DNA of 64,000 nt from Myxococcota bacterium (GTDB lineage: Bacteria; Myxococcota; B64-G9), in the NCBI GenBank assembly GCA_022710975.1, contig JAKLGA010000009.1:45083-109082 (forward strand), written 5' to 3'. Positions 20,279-53,622 of the stretch are shown piece by piece (position 1 is the first letter of the stretch; every line of letters starts with the position of its first letter). Under the pieces are notes generated by a model, which saw only the letters and a program-made list of their open reading frames with translations, had not been told where the DNA came from and ran no database searches. Made by a program: the position numbers and the translations under genes.

Positions 20279-21115
20279 TCAGGCCGCCGGGCGGGGCTGG
20301 CCGAACACGCCGAGCTGGCGGCGGAAGAGCCACAGGCCGACACCGATGCCGACGATGGTGAACAGCTCCAGCAGCTCCTCCCAGAAGTCGGCCCACATGG
20401 GCACCTCGCGGAAGACGCGCAGCAGGCCGAAGCGCATCAGCCCGAAGCCGAAGAAGCCGAACGCCGCGAAGAAGCCGAGCTCGGCCCAGCGCAGGCCCCG
20501 TCGGCCCGCCAGCAGGCAGCCGGTGGCGAGCAGGAAGCCGGCCGCGCCGACCAGCGGCAGCACCCGGTCGACGGTCAGGGCCTGGAACGGGGTGACCTGG
20601 TAGAGGAGGTGCGAGCCGAACACGTCCACGGACAGATCGAGGGTCAGGAGCGGCGCGGCGAGCGGCAACAGCGAGACCACCGCCAGCACCGGCGCGGTGA
20701 ACAGCATGAGCCTGTGCAGCCCGCAGGTCACCGGCTCCTTCTTCCAGCAGCGGCGGCACAGGCGCACGAGCGCGCAGGGGGCCTCGGGGTCGGTGAAGCG
20801 CAGGGCCCGGTCGTCCAGGATGCGGAACAGCGCCCAGGGGAACAGCGACCACATGACCAGCATGCCGGCCACGTGGCCGAGGTCGACGAGATCGCTCTCG
20901 CCGCCAGGCAGCATGGCGTTCACCGCGCAGAACGCCTCGCCGACGAAGAACCCCCACAGCCCCCAGCGCAGCAGGCGCAGATCCCTATCGCGCACCCCGC
21001 GCAGCGGGATCACCGCCAGGGCGAGCGCCAGCAGCATGTAGGTCGGCTTGATGCCCAGCCCGGACACGGTCCAGGCCAGCTGGTCCCAGAAGCTGAGCGC
21101 GAGCGGGGTGGGCAT
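20279..21115 (-). CDS. hypothetical integral membrane protein
   Basis: 278 aa, multiple hydrophobic Trp/Phe-rich segments (FGFFGFGLMRFGLL). Co-directional between glgX and the hydrolase. Confidence 0.6.
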   Translation of the reverse strand: MPTPLALSFWDQLAWTVSGLGIKPTYMLLALALAVIPLRGVRDRDLRLLRWGLWGFFVGEAFCAVNAMLPGGESDLVDLGHVAGMLVMWSLFPWALFRILDDRALRFTDPEAPCALVRLCRRCWKKEPVTCGLHRLMLFTAPVLAVVSLLPLAAPLLTLDLSVDVFGSHLLYQVTPFQALTVDRVLPLVGAAGFLLATGCLLAGRRGLRWAELGFFAAFGFFGFGLMRFGLLRVFREVPMWADFWEELLELFTIVGIGVGLWLFRRQLGVFGQPRPAA

Positions 21116-21216
21116 GGCCCGAGCCTAGCGCCAACCGCCGCGTGAACACAACGGGAACCGCGTCCCGTGAGCGGACGGACGGGAGGGGACGGAGTGGGAG
21201 CGGCGGACCGGCGCGG

Positions 21217-25021: not shown

Positions 25022-26081
25022 CGGCCACGCCCTCGGTCTCCAGCAGGCGCAGCTTGCGCCACAGCCCACCCCCGTAGCCGCCCAGCCCGCCGCCCGCGGC
25101 GATCACGCGGTGGCAGGGGATGACGATGGCGATGCGGTTCTGACCGTTGGCGTGGCCCACCGCGCGGGCGGCGCCGGGCTGGCCGAGCTCCCTCGCCAGC
25201 TCCGCGTAGCTGCGGGTCTGGCCGTAGGGGATGCGCAGCAGGCCGTCCCACACCCGCTGCTGGAAGGCGCTGCCCGGCGCGTGGAGCGGCAACTCGAAGG
25301 CGCGCCTTGACCCGGCGAAGTACTCGGCCAGCTGGGCGCGGAGCTTGTCCAGGATCTCCGACTCGCCTGGCACGAGCGGCAGGCCGAGCCGATCTCGCAC
25401 CGCCGCGAGCTGGGCCTCCACCTCCCGGCGATCGGTGAACTCGAGCAGGCACACGGCGGCCGAGGTGGCCCCGGCCAGCATGGGCCCCAAGGGAGTGTCG
25501 AGCCACGCCAGGCGGACGTGGTCGTCCCGGGCCGAGGCGGAGCGTCCGGGCGCCGCGCCGACCAGCTTGGCGAAGGCCGCGCGGAAGCCGGAGTGGGATT
25601 CCCAGCCGTGATCGAACACGGCGTCGTCGATGGTCCGGCCGGAGCGGAGCGCGGCGTAGGCCTTGCCCAGCCGCCGGGCGCGGCTGTAGGCCTGGAACGT
25701 CAGGCCGAAGGTCTGCAGGAAGTGGCGGCGCACCTGGACCGGGTCGAGCCCCATGGCCCGCAGGTCACCGTCGCGGATGCGCTCGTCCGGCCGCGCCTCG
25801 ACGCGCGCGAGCAGCCGCGAGACCCACTCCGGCGTGCGCCCTCGGTCCTCGAGCGGCCGGCAGCGGAGGCAGGGACGGAAGCCCGCCAGCAGGGCCGCCC
25901 GGGCGGTCGGGTAGAACTCGACGTGCTCCGGCCTCGGCTTCCGCGCCGGGCAGGACGGCCGGCAAAAGATGCCCGTGGTGGTGATCGCGGCCAGGAAGAG
26001 GCCGTCGCAGGACGCGTCGCGCTCCATGAGGGCGGCCAGCATCTCGTCGCGGGGGGGCAGGGCGGTCGGGTGGCTTTCCAT
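25011..26081 (-). CDS. ada: bifunctional Ada: methylphosphotriester-DNA methyltransferase / AraC-type regulator / O6-methylguanine-DNA methyltransferase
   Basis: 356 aa. N-terminal Zn-Cys cluster FCRPSCPARKP...FRPCLRCRP. AraC-type HTH in the middle. C-terminal IVIPCHRVI active-site motif. Confidence 0.9.
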   Translation of the reverse strand: MESHPTALPPRDEMLAALMERDASCDGLFLAAITTTGIFCRPSCPARKPRPEHVEFYPTARAALLAGFRPCLRCRPLEDRGRTPEWVSRLLARVEARPDERIRDGDLRAMGLDPVQVRRHFLQTFGLTFQAYSRARRLGKAYAALRSGRTIDDAVFDHGWESHSGFRAAFAKLVGAAPGRSASARDDHVRLAWLDTPLGPMLAGATSAAVCLLEFTDRREVEAQLAAVRDRLGLPLVPGESEILDKLRAQLAEYFAGSRRAFELPLHAPGSAFQQRVWDGLLRIPYGQTRSYAELARELGQPGAARAVGHANGQNRIAIVIPCHRVIAAGGGLGGYGGGLWRKLRLLETEGVAVSP

Positions 26082-26161
26082 GGGCCCACCTTAGCCGGGC
26101 TCGGTCCGGGGGATCCACCGAAGAATGGAGGCCGAATTCCCGGACGTCGGCCCGGCTCGCC

Positions 26162-28418: not shown

Positions 28419-29840
28419 ATGCCGCCACCGGTCGACGCCGCCGAGTTCCTGGCCACGGTGCGCGGCTTCCAGGCGCTCGAGCCCGACGATCTCCGTCGGC
28501 TGGCCGAGCGCACCACCTTCCGCGCGTTCGCCCCGGGCGAGTTCCTCATCCGCAAGGGCGAGCAGGGCCACACCCTGTTCGTCGTCCGCCGCGGCCAGCT
28601 CCGGGTGCCCATCACCGACGCCGAGGGCCACGAGAAGATGGTCTACCGGGTCGGCCCGGGGGACCTGGTGGGTGAGATGGCGCTGCTGACCGGCGACGCC
28701 CGCCGGAACGACGTGGTGGCCGACACCGAGGTGGAGGCCTTCCTCATCCACCGCCGCTCGCTCATGCCGCTGCTCGCCGATCACCCGCCGCTGGCCCGCT
28801 TCCTGTCGGACATCCTCGGCCGGCGCATCGAGCAGTCGGGCGGCATCGATCGGGTGGGCAAGTACAGGCTGCTGGGCAAGCTGGGCGAGGGCTCGACCGG
28901 CCAGGTGTTCGAGGCGGTCCACCCCGTGCTGCAGCGCACCGTGGCTATCAAGATGCTGTCGCACGCCCTGGTGTTCCACACCCAGTTCCGCGACCGCTTC
29001 CTCGAGGAGGCCCGCCTGGTGGCCAGCCTGGCGCACGCGAACATCATCCAGGTGTTCGACACCGAGGCGGCCTTCGGCACCTACTTCATCGTCATGGAGA
29101 AGCTGGACGGCACGGATCTGGCCGCGGTGCTGGAGAGGCGCGGGGCGCTGCCGCCGGCCGAGGCAGGCGCCATCCTGGATCAGATGGCCGCCGCGCTCGA
29201 GTTCGCCCACGCCCGCGGCTTCGCCCACCGGGACGTGAAGCCCGCCAACGCGGTCATCGACGCCCGGGGCCGGGTCAAGCTCATGGACTTCGGCCTGGCG
29301 CGGCCCATCCCGGCCGTGCTGGGCAGCGAGCGGGCGCAGAGCGTGGATGGCACGCCCCAGTACATCGCGCCGGAGACCGCCCTGGGCCGGCAGACCGACG
29401 GGCGGGTGGACGTGTACGCGCTGGGTGTGATGGCCTTCGAGATGCTGACCGGCAGGTTGCCGTTCACCACCCTCAAGGTCATGGAGCTGCTGCAGTCCCA
29501 CGTGCGCACCCCGCCTCCGGACATCCGGGCGCTGCGCCCCGATCTGCCCGCCGGGCTGGTGGAGTTCGTCCGCGGCACGCTGGTGAAGGACCCGGACAAG
29601 CGGGTGACCGACTGGCCGCGGCTGCGGGCCATGCTGCGGTGCGAGGCCGCGGACGCCGCGAGCCCCGGGCCGCCGCCGGCCCGCGAGGACGTGATCCGTG
29701 TGCGCTACCAGCCCGGGGCCGCCCCGCGGGTCGAGGCCGCCGTGGAGGCGCTCGAGCGCGCGCTGCGAGGCTTGCCCGGCGTGGACATCGCCCGCGGCCG
29801 GATGAGCCCGGCCGGCCAGGAGGATTCGCATGAGCCGTGA
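28419..29840 (+). CDS. cyclic-nucleotide-binding domain Ser/Thr protein kinase
   Basis: N-terminal cNMP-binding fold (FLIRKGEQGHTLFVVRRGQL...GPGDLVGEMALL). Kinase motifs GxGxxG-like LGEGSTGQV, VAIK, HRDVKPAN, DFGLA, APE. Confidence 0.9.
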   Translation: MPPPVDAAEFLATVRGFQALEPDDLRRLAERTTFRAFAPGEFLIRKGEQGHTLFVVRRGQLRVPITDAEGHEKMVYRVGPGDLVGEMALLTGDARRNDVVADTEVEAFLIHRRSLMPLLADHPPLARFLSDILGRRIEQSGGIDRVGKYRLLGKLGEGSTGQVFEAVHPVLQRTVAIKMLSHALVFHTQFRDRFLEEARLVASLAHANIIQVFDTEAAFGTYFIVMEKLDGTDLAAVLERRGALPPAEAGAILDQMAAALEFAHARGFAHRDVKPANAVIDARGRVKLMDFGLARPIPAVLGSERAQSVDGTPQYIAPETALGRQTDGRVDVYALGVMAFEMLTGRLPFTTLKVMELLQSHVRTPPPDIRALRPDLPAGLVEFVRGTLVKDPDKRVTDWPRLRAMLRCEAADAASPGPPPAREDVIRVRYQPGAAPRVEAAVEALERALRGLPGVDIARGRMSPAGQEDSHEP

Positions 29841-48921: not shown

Positions 48922-50271
48922 TTGCCAGGCCTGCTGAGGCGCATCTTCGGGCCGGCCCCGCACCGGCCACCGCTCCCGGAGGCGGAGGTCCGCCGGCGCT
49001 ACCCCTGGCTGCGCTGGGCAATGCTCGAGTCCACCTTCCTGGGCTACGCGGTCTTCTACCTGGTGCGCAACAACCTGGCGGTCGTGTCCAAGGACATGGG
49101 CGCCGCGCTCCAGTACGACAACAACGACATCGGCAACATCCTGGCGGCCACCGCCATCACCTACGGGCTGGGGAAGTTCGTGATGGGCGCGTTCTCGGAT
49201 CGCGCCAACCCGCGGGTGTTCATGGCCACCGGGCTGCTGCTCACCGCCTTGTGCAACCTGGCCTTCGGCGCGGTGGACAACTACTGGGTGCACCTCGGGC
49301 TGTGGGCGCTGAACGGCTTCATCCAGGGCATGGGCTGGCCGCCCTGCGGCCGGACGCTCGGCCACTGGTTCTCGGTGCGCGAGCGGGGCACGGTGTTCGC
49401 CTTCTGGAACATCGCCCACAACGTGGGCGGCGGCGCGGCCGGCATGGTGGCGGCCTGGAGCGCGGGGAGCTGGGGCTGGCGCTACGCCTTCATCGTGCCC
49501 GCGGCCATCGCCATCGCGGGCGCCGTGTACGTGCTGCTCCGCCTCCGGGACACCCCGCAGAGCGAGGGTCTGCCGTCGATCGAGGCCCACCGGCACGACT
49601 ACCCGCCCGACCAGACCGCGGGCCACACCCACGAGCGTGAGCTCACCACGCGCGAGCTGCTGGTGGTGCACATCCTCAGGAACCGCGCCCTGTGGCTGTT
49701 CGCCGCGGCCAATTTCTTCGTCTACATCGTGCGCTACAGCATGCTCGACTGGGGGCCGACCTACCTGCGCGAGGTGAAGGGCGGCACCCTCGAGGGCGGC
49801 GGGCTGGCGGTCATGGTGATCGAGTTCGCCGGCATCCCCTCGACGCTGCTGATGGGCTGGCTGTCGGATCGCTGGGGCGGCCGGCGCGGGCTGGTCAGCT
49901 TCCTGTGCATGCTGCCCATCGTGCTGGCCTTCGGCGGCATCCTGTGGAACCCGGCCGGCCGGCTGTGGCTGGACTACGCGCTGCTGGGGGTGGTGGGCTT
50001 CTTCATCTACCCGCCGGTCATGCTGCTCGGGGTGTCGGCGCTGGATCTCACCTCCAAGAAGGCGGTCGGCACCGCGGCTGGGTTCGTGGGGCTGTTCGGC
50101 TACCTGGGGCGCACGGCCCAGGCCAAGGGCTTCGGCTTCATGTCCAAGGAGATCACCGCCACCGCGGGCGCGGACGCGGCCTGGGACGCGGTGCTGTGGA
50201 GCATCCTCGGCTGCGCCCTCATCTCGATCGTGCTGCTGGCCTTCACCTGCAAGATGCGCCCCCGAGCCTGA
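48922..50271 (+). CDS. organophosphate:phosphate antiporter family MFS transporter (GlpT/UhpC-like)
   Basis: 449 aa. GlpT/UhpT-type N-terminal region ([14 protein letters not shown]...[33 protein letters not shown]). 12-TM organisation. Confidence 0.85.
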
Positions 50272-50307
50272 CAGAAAGAACCCTATTAGGGTGGGGGAAC
50301 GGGCCCT

Positions 50308-50316
50308 TGGTACAAT
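50308..50316 (+). promoter_or_regulatory. extended -10 TGGTACAAT, 6 nt upstream of ATG (predicted leaderless transcript)
   Basis: TGGTACAAT GGTGCC ATG. The same module is repeated upstream of the paralog at 51338. Confidence 0.4.
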
Positions 50317-50322
50317 GGTGCC

Positions 50323-51201
50323 ATGGTGATTCGCCACCTTTGGATGGGGCTCGTGCTGGGGCTCGGCCTCCTGGGCATGGGTTGCACGGAGGGTCAGGTT
50401 GGCTCTGGCGACAGCGGGTCGAGCAAGTCGAGCGTAGACGCCGGTGGCCCTCTTGCCAGTAGACACCCGCACCGAGACCTTGAACATGGAGATCTGCATC
50501 TGCAGATTCTTCATGCCTACAATGACGAATTCTCCGACCTGAAGCCATGGATTGGAACTCTGGATCAAGCCCTGGTGGCTGATCCCAACAACCGTGACCT
50601 GCAGCGGATCCGAAAGGCAGTCTGCGCTGAAGCCGATGAAAGAGCCATCCGTGACCAGTGCCTGGTCGAGTTCGATCTCGAACACTGGCAGGCTGCCTGC
50701 GATTGCTTCAAGAGGCTCTCCTGCACTCACAGAACGCCCAATGTCGGAGCCGAGGTCGCACTGTGTGTCCATCGCCAAGCCGAGCCTCTGAACTCCGGTG
50801 AGCTTGGCCTGGCACAGAGGTCCATCGAGCGGATGTACCCCGAGCCGGCGCTTTCAGCCGCGGTGAAGGGATACAGCGAGGGCAAGGTGCGGACATCGCT
50901 GCGGGAGCTGAATACCTTCATGCAGAGAACGACGGACGAAGCTCTGAGACAGAAGGCCATCACGCTTGGGATCCACATGCGCATAGTGAAGGGCTACTAC
51001 GACTCGGACCCGCTCGAATTGATATTCGGTGGTGAAGGTGCAAGCTGCTCGAGGATGGGGTGGTGCCCTTGCTTGAGGTTTGAAGCCCTCCAGGCGCTTG
51101 ATGCTGATGCGATGATCATGCCGTGGTGGGTCACATCCTTTTTCCATGAGGATATCGACAACAGGCTTCGAGAGTGCAGAGAGCGATGCGGGGGACGTTG
51201 A
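50323..51201 (+). CDS. hypothetical lipoprotein, paralog A (lower-GC islet)
   Basis: 292 aa. Lipobox LGLLGMGC. Shares the N-terminus MVIRH(L/V)WMGLVLGLG and a WQAA(C/Y)DCF(K/R)(R/K)L motif with the adjacent paralog. Local GC clearly below the window average. Confidence 0.6.
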   Translation: MVIRHLWMGLVLGLGLLGMGCTEGQVGSGDSGSSKSSVDAGGPLASRHPHRDLEHGDLHLQILHAYNDEFSDLKPWIGTLDQALVADPNNRDLQRIRKAVCAEADERAIRDQCLVEFDLEHWQAACDCFKRLSCTHRTPNVGAEVALCVHRQAEPLNSGELGLAQRSIERMYPEPALSAAVKGYSEGKVRTSLRELNTFMQRTTDEALRQKAITLGIHMRIVKGYYDSDPLELIFGGEGASCSRMGWCPCLRFEALQALDADAMIMPWWVTSFFHEDIDNRLRECRERCGGR

Positions 51202-51321
51202 AGCGCCCTCCGTCTGTCGAAGAAGGCGATCGCCCGTTTCTGTGGAAATCTGGGAGCCACTAATGGGTTACCCCAGTCCTGACCCCGGTCCGAATTCCTA
51301 TTGGGGTGAGGGACCTGGCGC

Positions 51322-51330
51322 TTGGTACAA
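51322..51330 (+). promoter_or_regulatory. extended -10 TGGTACAAT, 7 nt upstream of ATG (predicted leaderless transcript)
   Basis: TGGTACAAT GGGGCC ATG. About 100 bp around it is roughly 85% identical to the region at 50284-50390. Confidence 0.4.
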
Positions 51331-51337
51331 TGGGGCC

Positions 51338-52012
51338 ATGGTGATCCGCCACGTGTGGATGGGGCTGGTGCTGGGCCTGGGTGTCCTCGGCCTGAGCTGT
51401 AGTGACCCGGACCGGGGCCCGCTCGGTAGCGAGGTGAGTCCAGTGGCCGCGGACTCTGGTGAGCTACCAGGCAGGGGAGACTCTGACGCGCACATGGTCC
51501 TGCACCGCTATGCCTGGGATCTTGTCGGCAGCTCCACGGACCTCGAGGTCTCGGCGGTGGAGGAAGCTGTCAGGGAAGGTTGCCTTCACATTGGCGCCAG
51601 GTGCAATCTGCCGTTTTTTAGCGATTGTAGAGCCCGCAACTGCGCCGAAGAATCTGATTTCGTATTCTATGTCGCCTGCCTGGGCCTGTTCGCGAATGAT
51701 CGATGGCAGGCGGCCTACGATTGTTTCAGGAAGCTGCCCGCGGAGGGCTGTTTCGCGAGGATCGCCAAGGACAAGATCGCCCGGTGCGTCGAGCAGCTCA
51801 CCAAGTTCCACCGCGCCGAGAGCCTGGCCTACGAGCAGGCGGGGCGGCTCTGGAAGGCTCTGGAGCACGAGTTGACCCTGTTCGAGCTCCACCCCTGCGA
51901 CCCGGAGATCTACGCACGGCTGCGCGGCCTGGAGCAGAGGGTCGAGGTGCCCGCGGGGCGCGAACGGCCGCGCATCGCCTGGGACCAGGCCGCCTGCGGC
52001 AACCCGCCCTGA
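51338..52012 (+). CDS. hypothetical lipoprotein, paralog B (lower-GC islet)
   Basis: 224 aa from MVIRHVWMGLVLGLGVLGLSC. Only the 3' part of track ORF 51146..52012 is used. Shares N-terminus and central motif with paralog A. Confidence 0.6.
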   Translation: MVIRHVWMGLVLGLGVLGLSCSDPDRGPLGSEVSPVAADSGELPGRGDSDAHMVLHRYAWDLVGSSTDLEVSAVEEAVREGCLHIGARCNLPFFSDCRARNCAEESDFVFYVACLGLFANDRWQAAYDCFRKLPAEGCFARIAKDKIARCVEQLTKFHRAESLAYEQAGRLWKALEHELTLFELHPCDPEIYARLRGLEQRVEVPAGRERPRIAWDQAACGNPP

Positions 52013-52060
52013 CCCCGGTCCACAGACCCGTGCAGTGGGCCGTGCCTGCGCTCCGCGGGC

Positions 52061-52116
52061 CTCCTCCGCGCTCGGGCAGTTGAGGAAACTGCCAAACTGC
52101 CCCTCGCGCGGAGGAG
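52061..52116. terminator. imperfect inverted repeat between convergent genes (candidate bidirectional terminator)
   Basis: CTCCTCCGCGC..GGGCAGTT (52061-52081) pairs with AACTGCCCC..GCGCGGAGGAG (52095-52116). Nested GGCAGTT/AACTGCC hairpin and direct repeat AACTGCC x2. No U-tract, so not a canonical intrinsic terminator. Confidence 0.3.
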
Positions 52117-52224
52117 ACCCACTCCGCCTACGGCTGGTGGCATTCGAGGGTTCCGTAGGCATCGGTTGACGCCTCCTGTTTCACCCTCAAAGGGTTTGTA
52201 TTCAGGAAGAACAGGACTGGACGA

Positions 52225-53526
52225 TCACGGCTCGATGCTGAACTCGTCCCAGACCGCGGTGGCGTAGTCGGAGGCAGAGCCTGACACGCCGATCACCTGG
52301 ATGCGCATCCGGCGGCCCTCAACCTCGACGCGCAGGAAGTGGAAGCCGCAGCCGCGGGCCTGGGAGAAGTCGTAGGAGAGCTCTTGCCGCTCGCCGGGCG
52401 CGGGGTCGCAGCCCGAGGGCAGCGGCCCGCCGCCGCCGCCGGAGACGATGTAGTGGACCGCCTGCGCGCCCCAGGGGTAGCTCGCGGGCGGGGGCCGGGC
52501 GCGGGTCGCGGCGCCGTCGTCCGGCACGTAGAAGCGATCGTAGACGTGGGCGTGGCCCGAGAGCACCAGCTCCACGTCGTACTGGTGGAAGAGCGCCCCG
52601 TAGTACCGCCGCACCGGCTCGATGCACTCACCGTCCCCGCTCTCGGCCATGGTGGTCGAGTAGAGCGGGTGGTGCATGAACACCACCACGTGCTCGACCG
52701 TGGGATCCTCGCGGGCCGTGCGCAGGTGCTCCTCCAGCCAGGTGCGGGGCGTGTTCGACCACCAGCGGGTGCCGATCTCGAAGGCGATGAACACGGTGTT
52801 CTGGTGGCGGAAGGTGTAGAAGGTCTTGAACGAGAACCCGCTCGGCACGCTGGTGCCCGAGACGGGGTTCGAGGGATCGGTCGAGTAGCTGGTGGGGTCG
52901 TCCTCGTAGACGGTGGGGAAGGCCTCGGCGTAGCCGGCGCCCCAGACCGCGGGGTTGCGAGTGAAGAGCTGCTCCTCGAGGTAGGCCTTGAAGTCCCACA
53001 CCGCGCCCGAGCCCGCGTCGTGGTTGCCGAGCGCGGGGAAGTAGGGGAGAGCGGCCAGCATGCCCGCGTAGCACTCGACCAGCTTGGCGTACGCCCCGTC
53101 GTCGTAGCCGTGATCCATCTGGTCGCCGGCCTCGAGCACGAAATCCACGTCGGCGGCCAGGATGGCCTCGGGCACGGCCAGGCGCTCGGGCACCCCGGAG
53201 GTGCAGCTCTCGGTGGCGAACTGGTTGTCGGCGAAGGCGGCGAAGCTGAAGCGCGCGGGCGGGGGACCCGGGTCATCCTCGGCCGCGCCCTCGTCCTCGC
53301 CCGCCGCGCCGTCGTCCTCGAGCGCCCCGCCTTCATCCTCCTCGACGGTTCCATCATCCTGCGGAACCCCCGCGTCGTCCTCCGAGGCGCCCCCGTCATC
53401 CTCGGCGCAGCACGCATCCTCGGCGTCCACGTCCGCGTCCGGGGGATCGATGCCCACCTGCCCGGCGTCGCATCCGACCAGGCCGGCCAGCAGCATCATG
53501 GAGCAGAGGATTCGAGCCCAAACCAT
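52225..53526 (-). CDS. calcineurin-like metallophosphoesterase lipoprotein
   Basis: 433 aa from MVWARILCSMMLLAGLVGC (lipobox). Metallophosphoesterase motifs GDQMDHG, GNHD, FMHHPLY, GHAHVYDR. Acidic low-complexity linker after the signal peptide. Confidence 0.8.
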   Translation of the reverse strand: MVWARILCSMMLLAGLVGCDAGQVGIDPPDADVDAEDACCAEDDGGASEDDAGVPQDDGTVEEDEGGALEDDGAAGEDEGAAEDDPGPPPARFSFAAFADNQFATESCTSGVPERLAVPEAILAADVDFVLEAGDQMDHGYDDGAYAKLVECYAGMLAALPYFPALGNHDAGSGAVWDFKAYLEEQLFTRNPAVWGAGYAEAFPTVYEDDPTSYSTDPSNPVSGTSVPSGFSFKTFYTFRHQNTVFIAFEIGTRWWSNTPRTWLEEHLRTAREDPTVEHVVVFMHHPLYSTTMAESGDGECIEPVRRYYGALFHQYDVELVLSGHAHVYDRFYVPDDGAATRARPPPASYPWGAQAVHYIVSGGGGGPLPSGCDPAPGERQELSYDFSQARGCGFHFLRVEVEGRRMRIQVIGVSGSASDYATAVWDEFSIEP

Positions 53527-53532
53527 GGGGCC

Positions 53533-53538
53533 ATTGTA
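53533..53538 (-). promoter_or_regulatory. TACAAT -10-like hexamer 6 nt upstream of ATG (predicted leaderless), minus strand
   Basis: Minus-strand reading gcTACAATggccccATGgtt. Same -10 to ATG spacing as the two lipoprotein paralogs. Confidence 0.35.
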
Positions 53539-53622
53539 GCGCAGATCCCTCGCTTTCCCTCCCCTCCTGTCTTTCACCTTTATGAATTCCTTTCCTGGTT
53601 TTCGGGCTACAGTGGCCCGGCC

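Follow-up and report, generated by a model that had tools for sequence, protein, structure and literature searches.

A tandem pair of putatively leaderless lipoprotein genes related to the periplasmic domain of a KilD-like protein in a Myxococcota bacterium

Introduction

The Kil system is a recently found contact-dependent killing machine of myxobacteria, and its many FHA and tetratricopeptide repeat (TPR) accessory proteins have no known role. In Myxococcus xanthus the gene order kilA-kilC-kilF-kilD corresponds to a prepilin peptidase, a secretin, an FHA-TadA ATPase and KilD (PMC8460266). KilD itself (MXAN_3108), which is annotated "FHA; tetratricopeptide repeat", gathers at the points of contact with prey, and killing depends on it (Seef et al., 2021, PMC8460266); nothing on KilD paralogues was found in the literature searched. 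The subject of this study is a pair of adjacent lipoprotein genes, here named lipoA and lipoB, that lie in an islet of lower GC content within 64,000 nucleotides (the window) of a metagenome-assembled genome (MAG) of a Myxococcota bacterium (contig JAKLGA010000009.1). The two genes were noted in a preliminary description of the window, made from the sequence alone, and their products at first look like orphans; the new point made here is that they are identified, by profile searches and alignment, as copies of a domain encoded in a Tad/Kil-type gene cluster. Taken as a whole, the account of the locus as tandem, leaderless lipoprotein copies of the host's own KilD-like periplasmic domain is one that we consider probable rather than secure.

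Lipoprotein families in which a conserved promoter and signal peptide precede variable mature parts are exemplified by Vlp and Vsa of Mycoplasma and by Erp and Mlp of Borrelia. LipoA and LipoB likewise combine a conserved promoter and signal-peptide block with diverged mature parts, but there are only two to three copies, with no repeats, phase-variable tracts, recombination cassettes or host-immune setting. Leaderless mRNAs are common in Actinobacteria and Deinococcus. The bacterial examples have been reviewed (Beck & Moll, 2018, cited in PMC12754779) and pexR is a proposed myxobacterial case (PMC12754779), while the literature searched offered nothing on leaderless genes at the scale of whole Myxococcota genomes. 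A leaderless layout and a tandem pair of diverged lipoprotein genes are in themselves ordinary.

Relationship to a Kil-type gene cluster

Both open reading frames (50323-51201, 292 aa, and 51338-52012, 224 aa; Table 1) are present as had been described, and their products have in common the signal peptide MVIRH(L/V)WMGLVLGLG and the central motif WQAA(C/Y)DCF(K/R)(R/K)L. Homology extends to the mature parts, of which 99 aa align at 26% identity (Smith-Waterman z 8.9 with 500 shuffles; E = 2e-5), in agreement with the earlier view of tandem, strongly diverged paralogous lipoproteins. The lipobox pattern (PROSITE PS51257-type) is passed by LipoA (LGMG-C21) and LipoB (LGLS-C21), by two relatives introduced below, LipoC and P0004 (both GLG-C22), and by the metallophosphoesterase encoded beyond lipoB (LVG-C19); LipoA and LipoB would be lipidated and anchored in a membrane.

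Word-indexed searches of 5.8 billion proteins with LipoA and LipoB returned only the two proteins themselves, and neither these nor LipoC gave anything above threshold in Pfam, NCBIfam or PADLOC; there is also no Rfam family in the region of the islet. However, a HMMER profile of the two mature parts retrieved seven proteins, including both queries, from 1.84 billion representatives. The other five are P0003 (E 1.9e-17), P0004 (E 1.4e-10) and three proteins of about 650 aa in which two FHA domains and a transmembrane (TM) helix precede a C-terminal helical domain (FHA-FHA-TM proteins). P0003 is encoded by PK668_02155 and is a third paralogue, hereafter LipoC, in the same "Myxococcota bacterium" MAG as LipoA (PK668_18000) and LipoB (PK668_18005), whereas P0004 is a lipoprotein with a signal peptide very similar to theirs. 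A second profile search, made with the domain, added P0011, a 647-aa FHA-FHA-TM protein of "Myxococcota bacterium". With P0011 as query, tblastn finds both genes in the window (lipoA, E 2.5e-19; lipoB, E 5.8e-24, 43% over 106 aa), and in the family alignment the periplasmic part of P0011 is 64-65% identical to LipoC, 31-32% to LipoB and 30-31% to LipoA. The BLAST and profile searches that the preliminary description had proposed thus lead from two proteins that match only themselves to paralogues of a Tad/Kil-cluster periplasmic domain. The remaining members of the family that were found are all FHA-FHA-TM proteins, the lipoprotein versions being limited to this MAG and to the organism of P0004.

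P0011 and LipoA/LipoB very likely derive from one genome. The accessions of P0011 belong to the same HOX/HRY series as those of LipoA, LipoB and LipoC, and its gene is on JGI contig Ga0209507_1000031, while the window is identical to sequence of the 319-kb contig Ga0209507_1000032 (near-identical contigs are present in one Logan and two ENA assemblies). The LipoC gene lies elsewhere in the genome (L005, 5686-6819), and its DNA places the true start at the ATG after TATGAT-N6, giving a lipoprotein of 377 aa that begins MGMKCLRWMGWVLGLGVVGLGC.

The P0011 gene stands directly after genes for a Peptidase_A24 prepilin peptidase, a secretin (T2SS-T3SS_pil_N domain) and an FHA plus T2SSE/TadA ATPase (L007, 1-8600). 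The same succession of genes is found in all 12 related loci whose sequence extends sufficiently upstream, and in nearly all there is a convergent MlaC gene on the downstream side. The related loci (L008-L024) are from MAGs of uncultured Myxococcales or "Deltaproteobacteria" with 47-69% GC. P0011 is thus like KilD in position and in annotated domain content (FHA plus TPR-like), and it is with its C-terminal domain that LipoA, LipoB and LipoC share homology. On this basis P0011 is referred to as KilD-like, and LipoA and LipoB are placed by profile and alignment as paralogues of the helical, TPR-like domain on the periplasmic side of a KilD-like FHA-FHA-TM protein.

LipoA and LipoB differ from KilD in having neither FHA domains (none in Pfam or NCBIfam) nor a TM helix; each opens instead with a lipoprotein signal peptide, both are truncated and both are encoded away from the cluster. 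Mature LipoA, all-helical and TPR-like, is a copy of the periplasmic domain of the KilD-like protein from which the internal 'LxPCD...TxxC' insert and the last ~95 residues are missing. LipoB corresponds to the N-terminal half, with the 'LHPCDPEIYARL' insert segment in it, and next to nothing is left of the second half; in the family alignment its internal segment is partly kept (LHPCDPEIYARLRGLEQR vs LNPCDKEVYKRLQGVERK in P0011). LipoC comprises the whole domain minus an internal segment of ~70 residues, which LipoA also lacks. AlphaFold2 (AF2) run with the family alignment gives confident helices, and this is the structure model used here; a single-sequence AlphaFold model, at a predicted local distance difference test score of 49, was not used. 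At the level of sequence models, the best Pfam TPR match is TPR_9 (E 0.11, 13 bits vs a cut-off of 35) and there is no NCBIfam match, which sets the pair apart from the TadD pilotin, BamD, LpoA and the BepA TPR domain; the family profile finds TPR chains in the PDB weakly, at E 0.01-0.1 only.

Because the C-terminal domain of the KilD-like protein follows a TM helix behind cytoplasmic FHA domains, and because it also exists as lipoproteins of the Sec/Lol-exported type, it must, by its predicted topology, be periplasmic in this clade, whereas KilD has been described as cytoplasmic (PMC8460266). If this is correct, the exported copies of the KilD-type C-terminal domain would provide a clue to its topology, and LipoA, LipoB and LipoC would be natural "domain-only" variants with which the binding partners of KilD-type proteins might be found.

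Anatomy of the tandem duplication

The two genes occupy head-to-tail units (A, 50282-51291; B, 51297-52021) that are joined by 5 nt. At the 5' side, 50282-50384 and 51297-51399 are 83% identical over 103 nt, and identity falls to background upstream of CCTATT and past the lipobox. The upstream module of about 100 bp and roughly 85% identity reported earlier is therefore present, although the alignment is gap-free and the single-base A indel then proposed is not needed, its position being an A/G substitution. At the 3' side, an exact 14-nt repeat, CCTGACCCCGGTCC, is found at 51278-51291 and 52008-52021 (3/1000 shuffles reach its score). At both sites the TGA within it is read in the frame of the preceding gene, serving as the lipoB stop and as a second stop for lipoA, and a 'CGN' motif stands ahead of both. 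Since the 103-nt 5' repeat and the 14-nt 3' repeat delimit units that end over in-frame stops, the islet represents a tandem duplication, head to tail, in which both the 5' and the 3' ends are conserved. The in-frame codons that follow the lipoA stop (Table 1) form the relic 3' end of unit A, and the present lipoA stop looks like a late premature stop that shortened the gene after the duplication.

The contrast between a 5' module at 83% identity and the remainder of the genes, at about 50%, might be taken as the mark of recent gene conversion between the tandem copies. Conversion would, however, homogenise synonymous sites too, and in codons 1-21 as many as 9/16.5 of these differ (pS 0.55, dS ~1), near saturation, against 6/41 promoter positions (0.15; Jukes-Cantor distance 0.16); dN over the same codons is 0.09. 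This indicates that the promoter (~41 nt) and the signal peptide are probably under purifying selection, and the alignment of the upstream modules, which had been proposed as a check for gene conversion, makes conversion a very improbable cause of their similarity. A diversity-generating retroelement was also considered as the source of the divergent bodies and was set aside, there being no reverse transcriptase or template repeat among the annotated neighbours. An exact-pattern scan of a metagenome collection with the 5' module gave no match, in a collection that seemingly lacks the window's own contig, though it holds the neighbour contig.

In two ENA assemblies the contigs end inside lipoB, at 51634/51635, one of them (L003) with a mismatching A. 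A further contig, L027, from the same MEGAHIT assembly as L004, begins at 51629, so that the two sides overlap by 6 nt (AGAGCC), and L003, L004 and L027 have a SNP in common at 50137 (T>C). To explain the break at 51629-51635, a mobile element may have inserted in a second strain and duplicated a 6-bp target; alternatively, the break may be a gap caused by low coverage.

Start sites of the islet genes

The arrangement TACAAT-N6-ATG occurs exactly three times in the window, at 50311 (+), 51326 (+) and 53538 (-), against 0.02 expected from dinucleotide shuffles, and the three sites are the starts of lipoA, lipoB and the metallophosphoesterase gene, as had been noted. The earlier spacing of 6-7 nt can be made more precise, since it is 6 nt at all three genes and never 7. 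In lipoA and lipoB a TG on the upstream side turns the element into an extended -10, TGGTACAAT. At the three islet genes the 12 nt ahead of the ATG read TACAATGGNNCC and contain no Shine-Dalgarno motif. In lipoA, ATG 50323 is the first possible start past an in-frame stop (TAG 50287) that lies 12 codons upstream; LipoC, with its TATGAT-N6-ATG, likewise has no in-frame upstream start, and LipoA, LipoB, LipoC and P0004 match one another at the N-terminus from the first Met onwards.

The leaderless layout proposed earlier for lipoA and lipoB is thus compatible with the position of the -10, its extension, the lack of a Shine-Dalgarno motif and an N-terminus kept in four homologues, and transcription is predicted to start at the A of ATG 50323 (lipoA) and ATG 51338 (lipoB). 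As in known bacterial leaderless mRNAs, the -10 is positioned 6 nt from the ATG, there is no Shine-Dalgarno motif and the pattern is seen at ATG only; here, in contrast to those cases, the layout is known from sequence alone.

A reading with normal leaders would place the starts upstream, at ATG 51263 for lipoB (249 aa) and GTG 53577 for the metallophosphoesterase (450 aa), and would leave TACAAT inside coding sequence. These are the JGI gene calls, and the lipoB candidate has GGAG 6 nt before it. Yet the homologous stretch of lipoA contains the in-frame TAG 50287 and no upstream start, LipoC has no such start either, the 25-aa extension would put an uncharged, acidic segment ahead of the LipoB signal peptide, and NCBI calls the metallophosphoesterase at 433 aa. 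The callers, moreover, are mutually inconsistent at every one of these genes (LipoA 292/285/282 aa; LipoB 249/224/172 aa, true 224; metallophosphoesterase 450/433/424 aa; LipoC 272/321 aa, true 377), so the upstream starts carry very little weight with us. If the leaderless starts are right, automatic callers misplaced the start of every one of these genes, and truncated calls remove signal peptides and make homologues look like unrelated orphans.

The preliminary description had also suggested that the three genes form a co-regulated set of secreted lipoproteins, and in favour of a dedicated regulon it can be said that all three have the identical hexamer within a GG..CCATGG context (15/17 positions), that TACAAT is the -10 nearest to consensus among the leaderless candidates of the genome and belongs to these three genes, and that all three products pass the lipobox pattern. 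However, the relaxed pattern TANNNT-N6-ATG has six matches in the window against 1.4 expected, five of them at gene starts, and eight in ~90 kb of the genome, seven of them at true gene starts; no TANNNT-type matches with N7 spacing or GTG starts are found in the window. Because the pattern marks at least seven gene starts in ~90 kb, which include that of LipoC and, at unrelated genes and with different hexamers, those of an STN-domain protein, a membrane protein (21115, minus strand) and an Ada-type methyltransferase/regulator (26081, minus strand; Table 1), the leaderless start appears to be a general start type of the organism and not a private regulatory module. A layout that is genome-wide gives no evidence of co-regulation when the metallophosphoesterase has it too. 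On the upstream side of the -10, no alignment is seen between the metallophosphoesterase promoter and the lipoA/lipoB module, and CCTATT-GGGTG-GGGA has no counterpart there at equal distance. Finally, a -10 hexamer at a fixed spacing meets the mechanical needs of any leaderless sigma-70 promoter and is no regulatory signature. A regulon built on this module is therefore improbable.

Two other candidate elements were set aside. An extracytoplasmic function (ECF)-type promoter is suggested by GGAAC in lipoA, but the motif is incorrectly spaced and has no conserved counterpart in lipoB. A perfect 6+6 palindrome, ACCCTAtTAGGGT (ACCCTA-T-TAGGGT, 50280-50292), lies right behind the stop codon of the major facilitator superfamily (MFS) transporter gene and extends into the first part of the lipoA promoter module; as an operator it was rejected, since it is not kept upstream of lipoB.

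Base composition and origin of the islet

The window is a chromosome segment of 72% GC. The lower-GC islet reported within it is real, with 0.621 at 50-51 kb and 0.630 at 51-52 kb against 0.66-0.79 in the remaining 1-kb windows, and 52% at 50461-50520. The GC content of third codon positions (GC3) is 0.683 in lipoA (z = -13) and 0.809 in lipoB (z = -7), as compared with 0.963 on average for 26 reference genes of the window (sd 0.021, minimum 0.891), so the GC/GC3 check agrees with the islet. Its extent must be revised, because the metallophosphoesterase gene, at a GC3 of 0.935, is host-like and not deviant; the deviation covers ~50.3-51.75 kb and not the whole of 50272-53540. The islet lies between the MFS transporter gene on one side and the metallophosphoesterase gene on the other, and its flanks are ordinary housekeeping genes.

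Within the paralogues the deviation is uneven. GC3 is low throughout lipoA, but lipoB is a mosaic of 0.56-0.76 in codons 21-120 and 0.92-1.0 in codons 131-225, as is LipoC, with 0.44-0.68 in codons 21-80 and 0.9-1.0 in the rest, whereas the KilD-like gene is near 1.0 over its full length. Uniform mutation pressure cannot produce such a mosaic, which implies that recombination took place or that the segments differ in age. In all three paralogues the third positions are most AT-rich just after the signal peptide.

Horizontal acquisition, raised in the preliminary description, would explain this composition as that of a foreign lipoprotein cassette from a lower-GC relative, not yet ameliorated. 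The GC3 deviations are large, the synonymous sites of a long-resident gene would be expected near the genome's 0.96, other members of the family occur in genomes of 47-58% GC, the GC3 mosaics within lipoB and LipoC suggest segments of different history, and a donor inside the same clade as the host is possible. Yet the neighbour-joining trees (300 bootstrap replicates) place LipoA and LipoB, at 99-100%, within a clade of P0011, L017 (the sister-species orthologue of P0011), LipoC and P0004, that is, with the host's KilD-like gene and its closest relatives and not with low-GC lineages. They also have the Cys-containing motif C..EFDL..WQ.A.DCF of the domain core, which in the family alignment is otherwise limited to that clade. 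Because of this grouping and the clade motif a distant low-GC donor is rejected, and import from a distant lineage is unlikely. Further, the signal peptide and promoter layout are found at another locus, that of LipoC; there is no tRNA in the 64-kb window and no integrase or transposase among the Pfam-annotated neighbours; the sole flanking repeat is the 14-nt boundary of the duplication unit; and the flanking genes are those of an ordinary chromosome. Acquisition from any lower-GC relative, including a close one, remains in our view a minor, rather doubtful alternative, and the nesting in the host's clade argues against the earlier suggestion. If so, a low-GC islet in a 72% GC genome would have arisen from the host's own gene family and not from a distant lineage.

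Function, decay and a possible mechanism

The low GC3 of the two genes could also reflect AT-biased mutation after loss of selection, in which case lipoA and lipoB would be decaying, functionless duplicates. Both are truncated relative to LipoC, 26 in-frame codons separate the lipoA stop from its relic stop, 51-56% of the strongly conserved family positions are lost, the word-indexed searches gave no homologues outside this lineage, and assemblies from other samples break inside lipoB. On the other side, the chance of an open frame at this composition is 2.5e-5 for the 292 codons of lipoA and 3e-3 for lipoB. Strongly conserved family positions are kept at 44% in LipoA, against 19% of variable ones, and at 49% against 13% in LipoB, a two- to fourfold difference. 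The signal peptide shows a dN of 0.09 beside a dS of ~1 and the promoter is conserved, and the AF2 model has confidently predicted helices. Decay is accordingly judged unlikely, and diverged but functional proteins are favoured by these patterns of conservation.

The explanation we prefer, in which LipoA and LipoB are tandem, leaderless copies of the host's KilD-like domain, would run as follows. The periplasmic, all-helical TPR-like domain of the KilD-like protein would have been copied and joined to a lipoprotein signal peptide, founding a small lineage-specific family, of which one gene was then duplicated head-to-tail to give units A and B, LipoC being encoded elsewhere. Transcription of each gene would depend on a promoter of the sigma-70 type, with 6 nt between its -10 and the ATG, such that the mRNA begins at the start codon. 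The mature parts would have diverged near saturation with a lower GC3, while promoter and signal peptide were kept by purifying selection. The products may be lipid-anchored periplasmic protein-binding scaffolds for the partner or partners of the KilD-like domain, acting as adaptors, pilotin-like helpers or competitors. Homology, architecture, duplication anatomy and composition are observed features of the locus; an interaction of LipoA, LipoB and LipoC with a Tad-like machine is speculative.

Several points weigh against this explanation. The name KilD-like is given on position and architecture, the comparison with MXAN_3108 being one of annotation, and a motif scan of 185,579 species genomes found uncultured MAGs only and no cultivated Myxococcus. 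No Tad/Kil gene stands beside lipoA and lipoB among the Pfam-annotated genes of the window, in which about 31-40 kb is unannotated, so that the functional link to Tad/Kil is drawn from homology. The leaderless transcription start is read from the sequence, a consensus scan finds no canonical -35 near the lipoA and lipoB modules, and lipoB has the upstream ATG preceded by GGAG that JGI took as its start. Rapid protein evolution alone does not explain a low GC3 when the genome's other synonymous sites stand at 0.96, and the mosaic within genes hints at recombination. More than half of the conserved positions are changed in two truncated proteins, and the lipoA stop is followed by an in-frame relic, which fits decay too.

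A bolder extension of the preferred explanation is possible, though we hold it only tentatively. The lineage may have turned the KilD-like periplasmic domain into fast-evolving leaderless lipoproteins that tune, cap or compete with a contact-dependent Tad-like machine, either as outer-membrane partners that replace a missing TadD-type pilotin or as decoys that set a firing threshold. The tandem unit would then be a cassette whose body is replaced or remodelled, a reading prompted by the GC3 mosaic and the strain-level breakpoint inside lipoB. On this view the family would also show that the C-terminal domain of KilD-type proteins acts in the periplasm, and these proteins would span the membrane to connect FHA signalling in the cytoplasm with the envelope.

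Neighbouring genes and other features

Table 1. Positions of the features described in the text, numbered along the window unless another locus is named
Feature	Position	Strand	Description
lipoA	50323..51201	+	292-aa lipoprotein, lipobox LGMGC, Cys21
lipoB	51338..52012	+	224-aa lipoprotein, lipobox LGLSC, Cys21
Conserved domain core (..CLVEFDLEHWQAACDCFKRL..)	lipoA 50659..50717; lipoB counterpart 51677-51735	+	59 nt, 73% identical
Promoter module A	50282..50322	+	41 nt (CCTATTAGGGTGGGGGAACGGGCCCT-TGGTACAAT-GGTGCC); extended -10 TGnTACAAT at 50308-50316
Promoter module B	51297..51337	+	41 nt; TGGTACAAT at 51323-51331; 35/41 identical to module A
Relic 3' end of unit A (..KKAIARFCGNLGATNGLPQS*)	51202..51291	+	26 in-frame codons after lipoA stop (TGA 51199-51201) to TGA 51280-51282
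Inverted repeat	52057..52120		20-nt arms, 85% complementary, 24-nt loop; between convergent lipoB and metallophosphoesterase
Metallophosphoesterase gene	52225..53526	-	433-aa lipoprotein, lipobox GLVGC, acidic repeat linker; PF00149, E 2.6e-12
Metallophosphoesterase start module	53527..53538	-	TACAAT 53533-53538 + 6-nt spacer GGCCCC; no TG extension
Leaderless-type start	21113-21127	-	TAGGCT-N6-first ATG; membrane protein
Leaderless-type start	26079-26093	-	TAAGGT-N6-first ATG; Ada-type methyltransferase/regulator
Leaderless-type start	L007 13008	-	TAGCCT-N6-first ATG; STN-domain protein with signal peptide

The metallophosphoesterase gene is convergent with lipoB. Its product matches PF00149 at 48 bits, against a cut-off of 21.5, and the N-terminal linker, right after the lipobox, is encoded by imperfect 21-nt (7-codon) repeats (53270-53404, minus strand) and is acidic and rich in E, D, G and A. 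The inverted repeat between the two genes is probably a bidirectional terminator hairpin; the region 52005-52230 has a fold z of -3.0 with no T-run, and the only Rfam match of the repeat is an insignificant one to a plant miRNA model (E 0.53).

Ser/Thr kinases of the type encoded at 28419-29840 (plus strand) of the window make phospho-threonine marks that are read by FHA domains; the kinase at this position has an N-terminal cyclic-nucleotide-binding domain.

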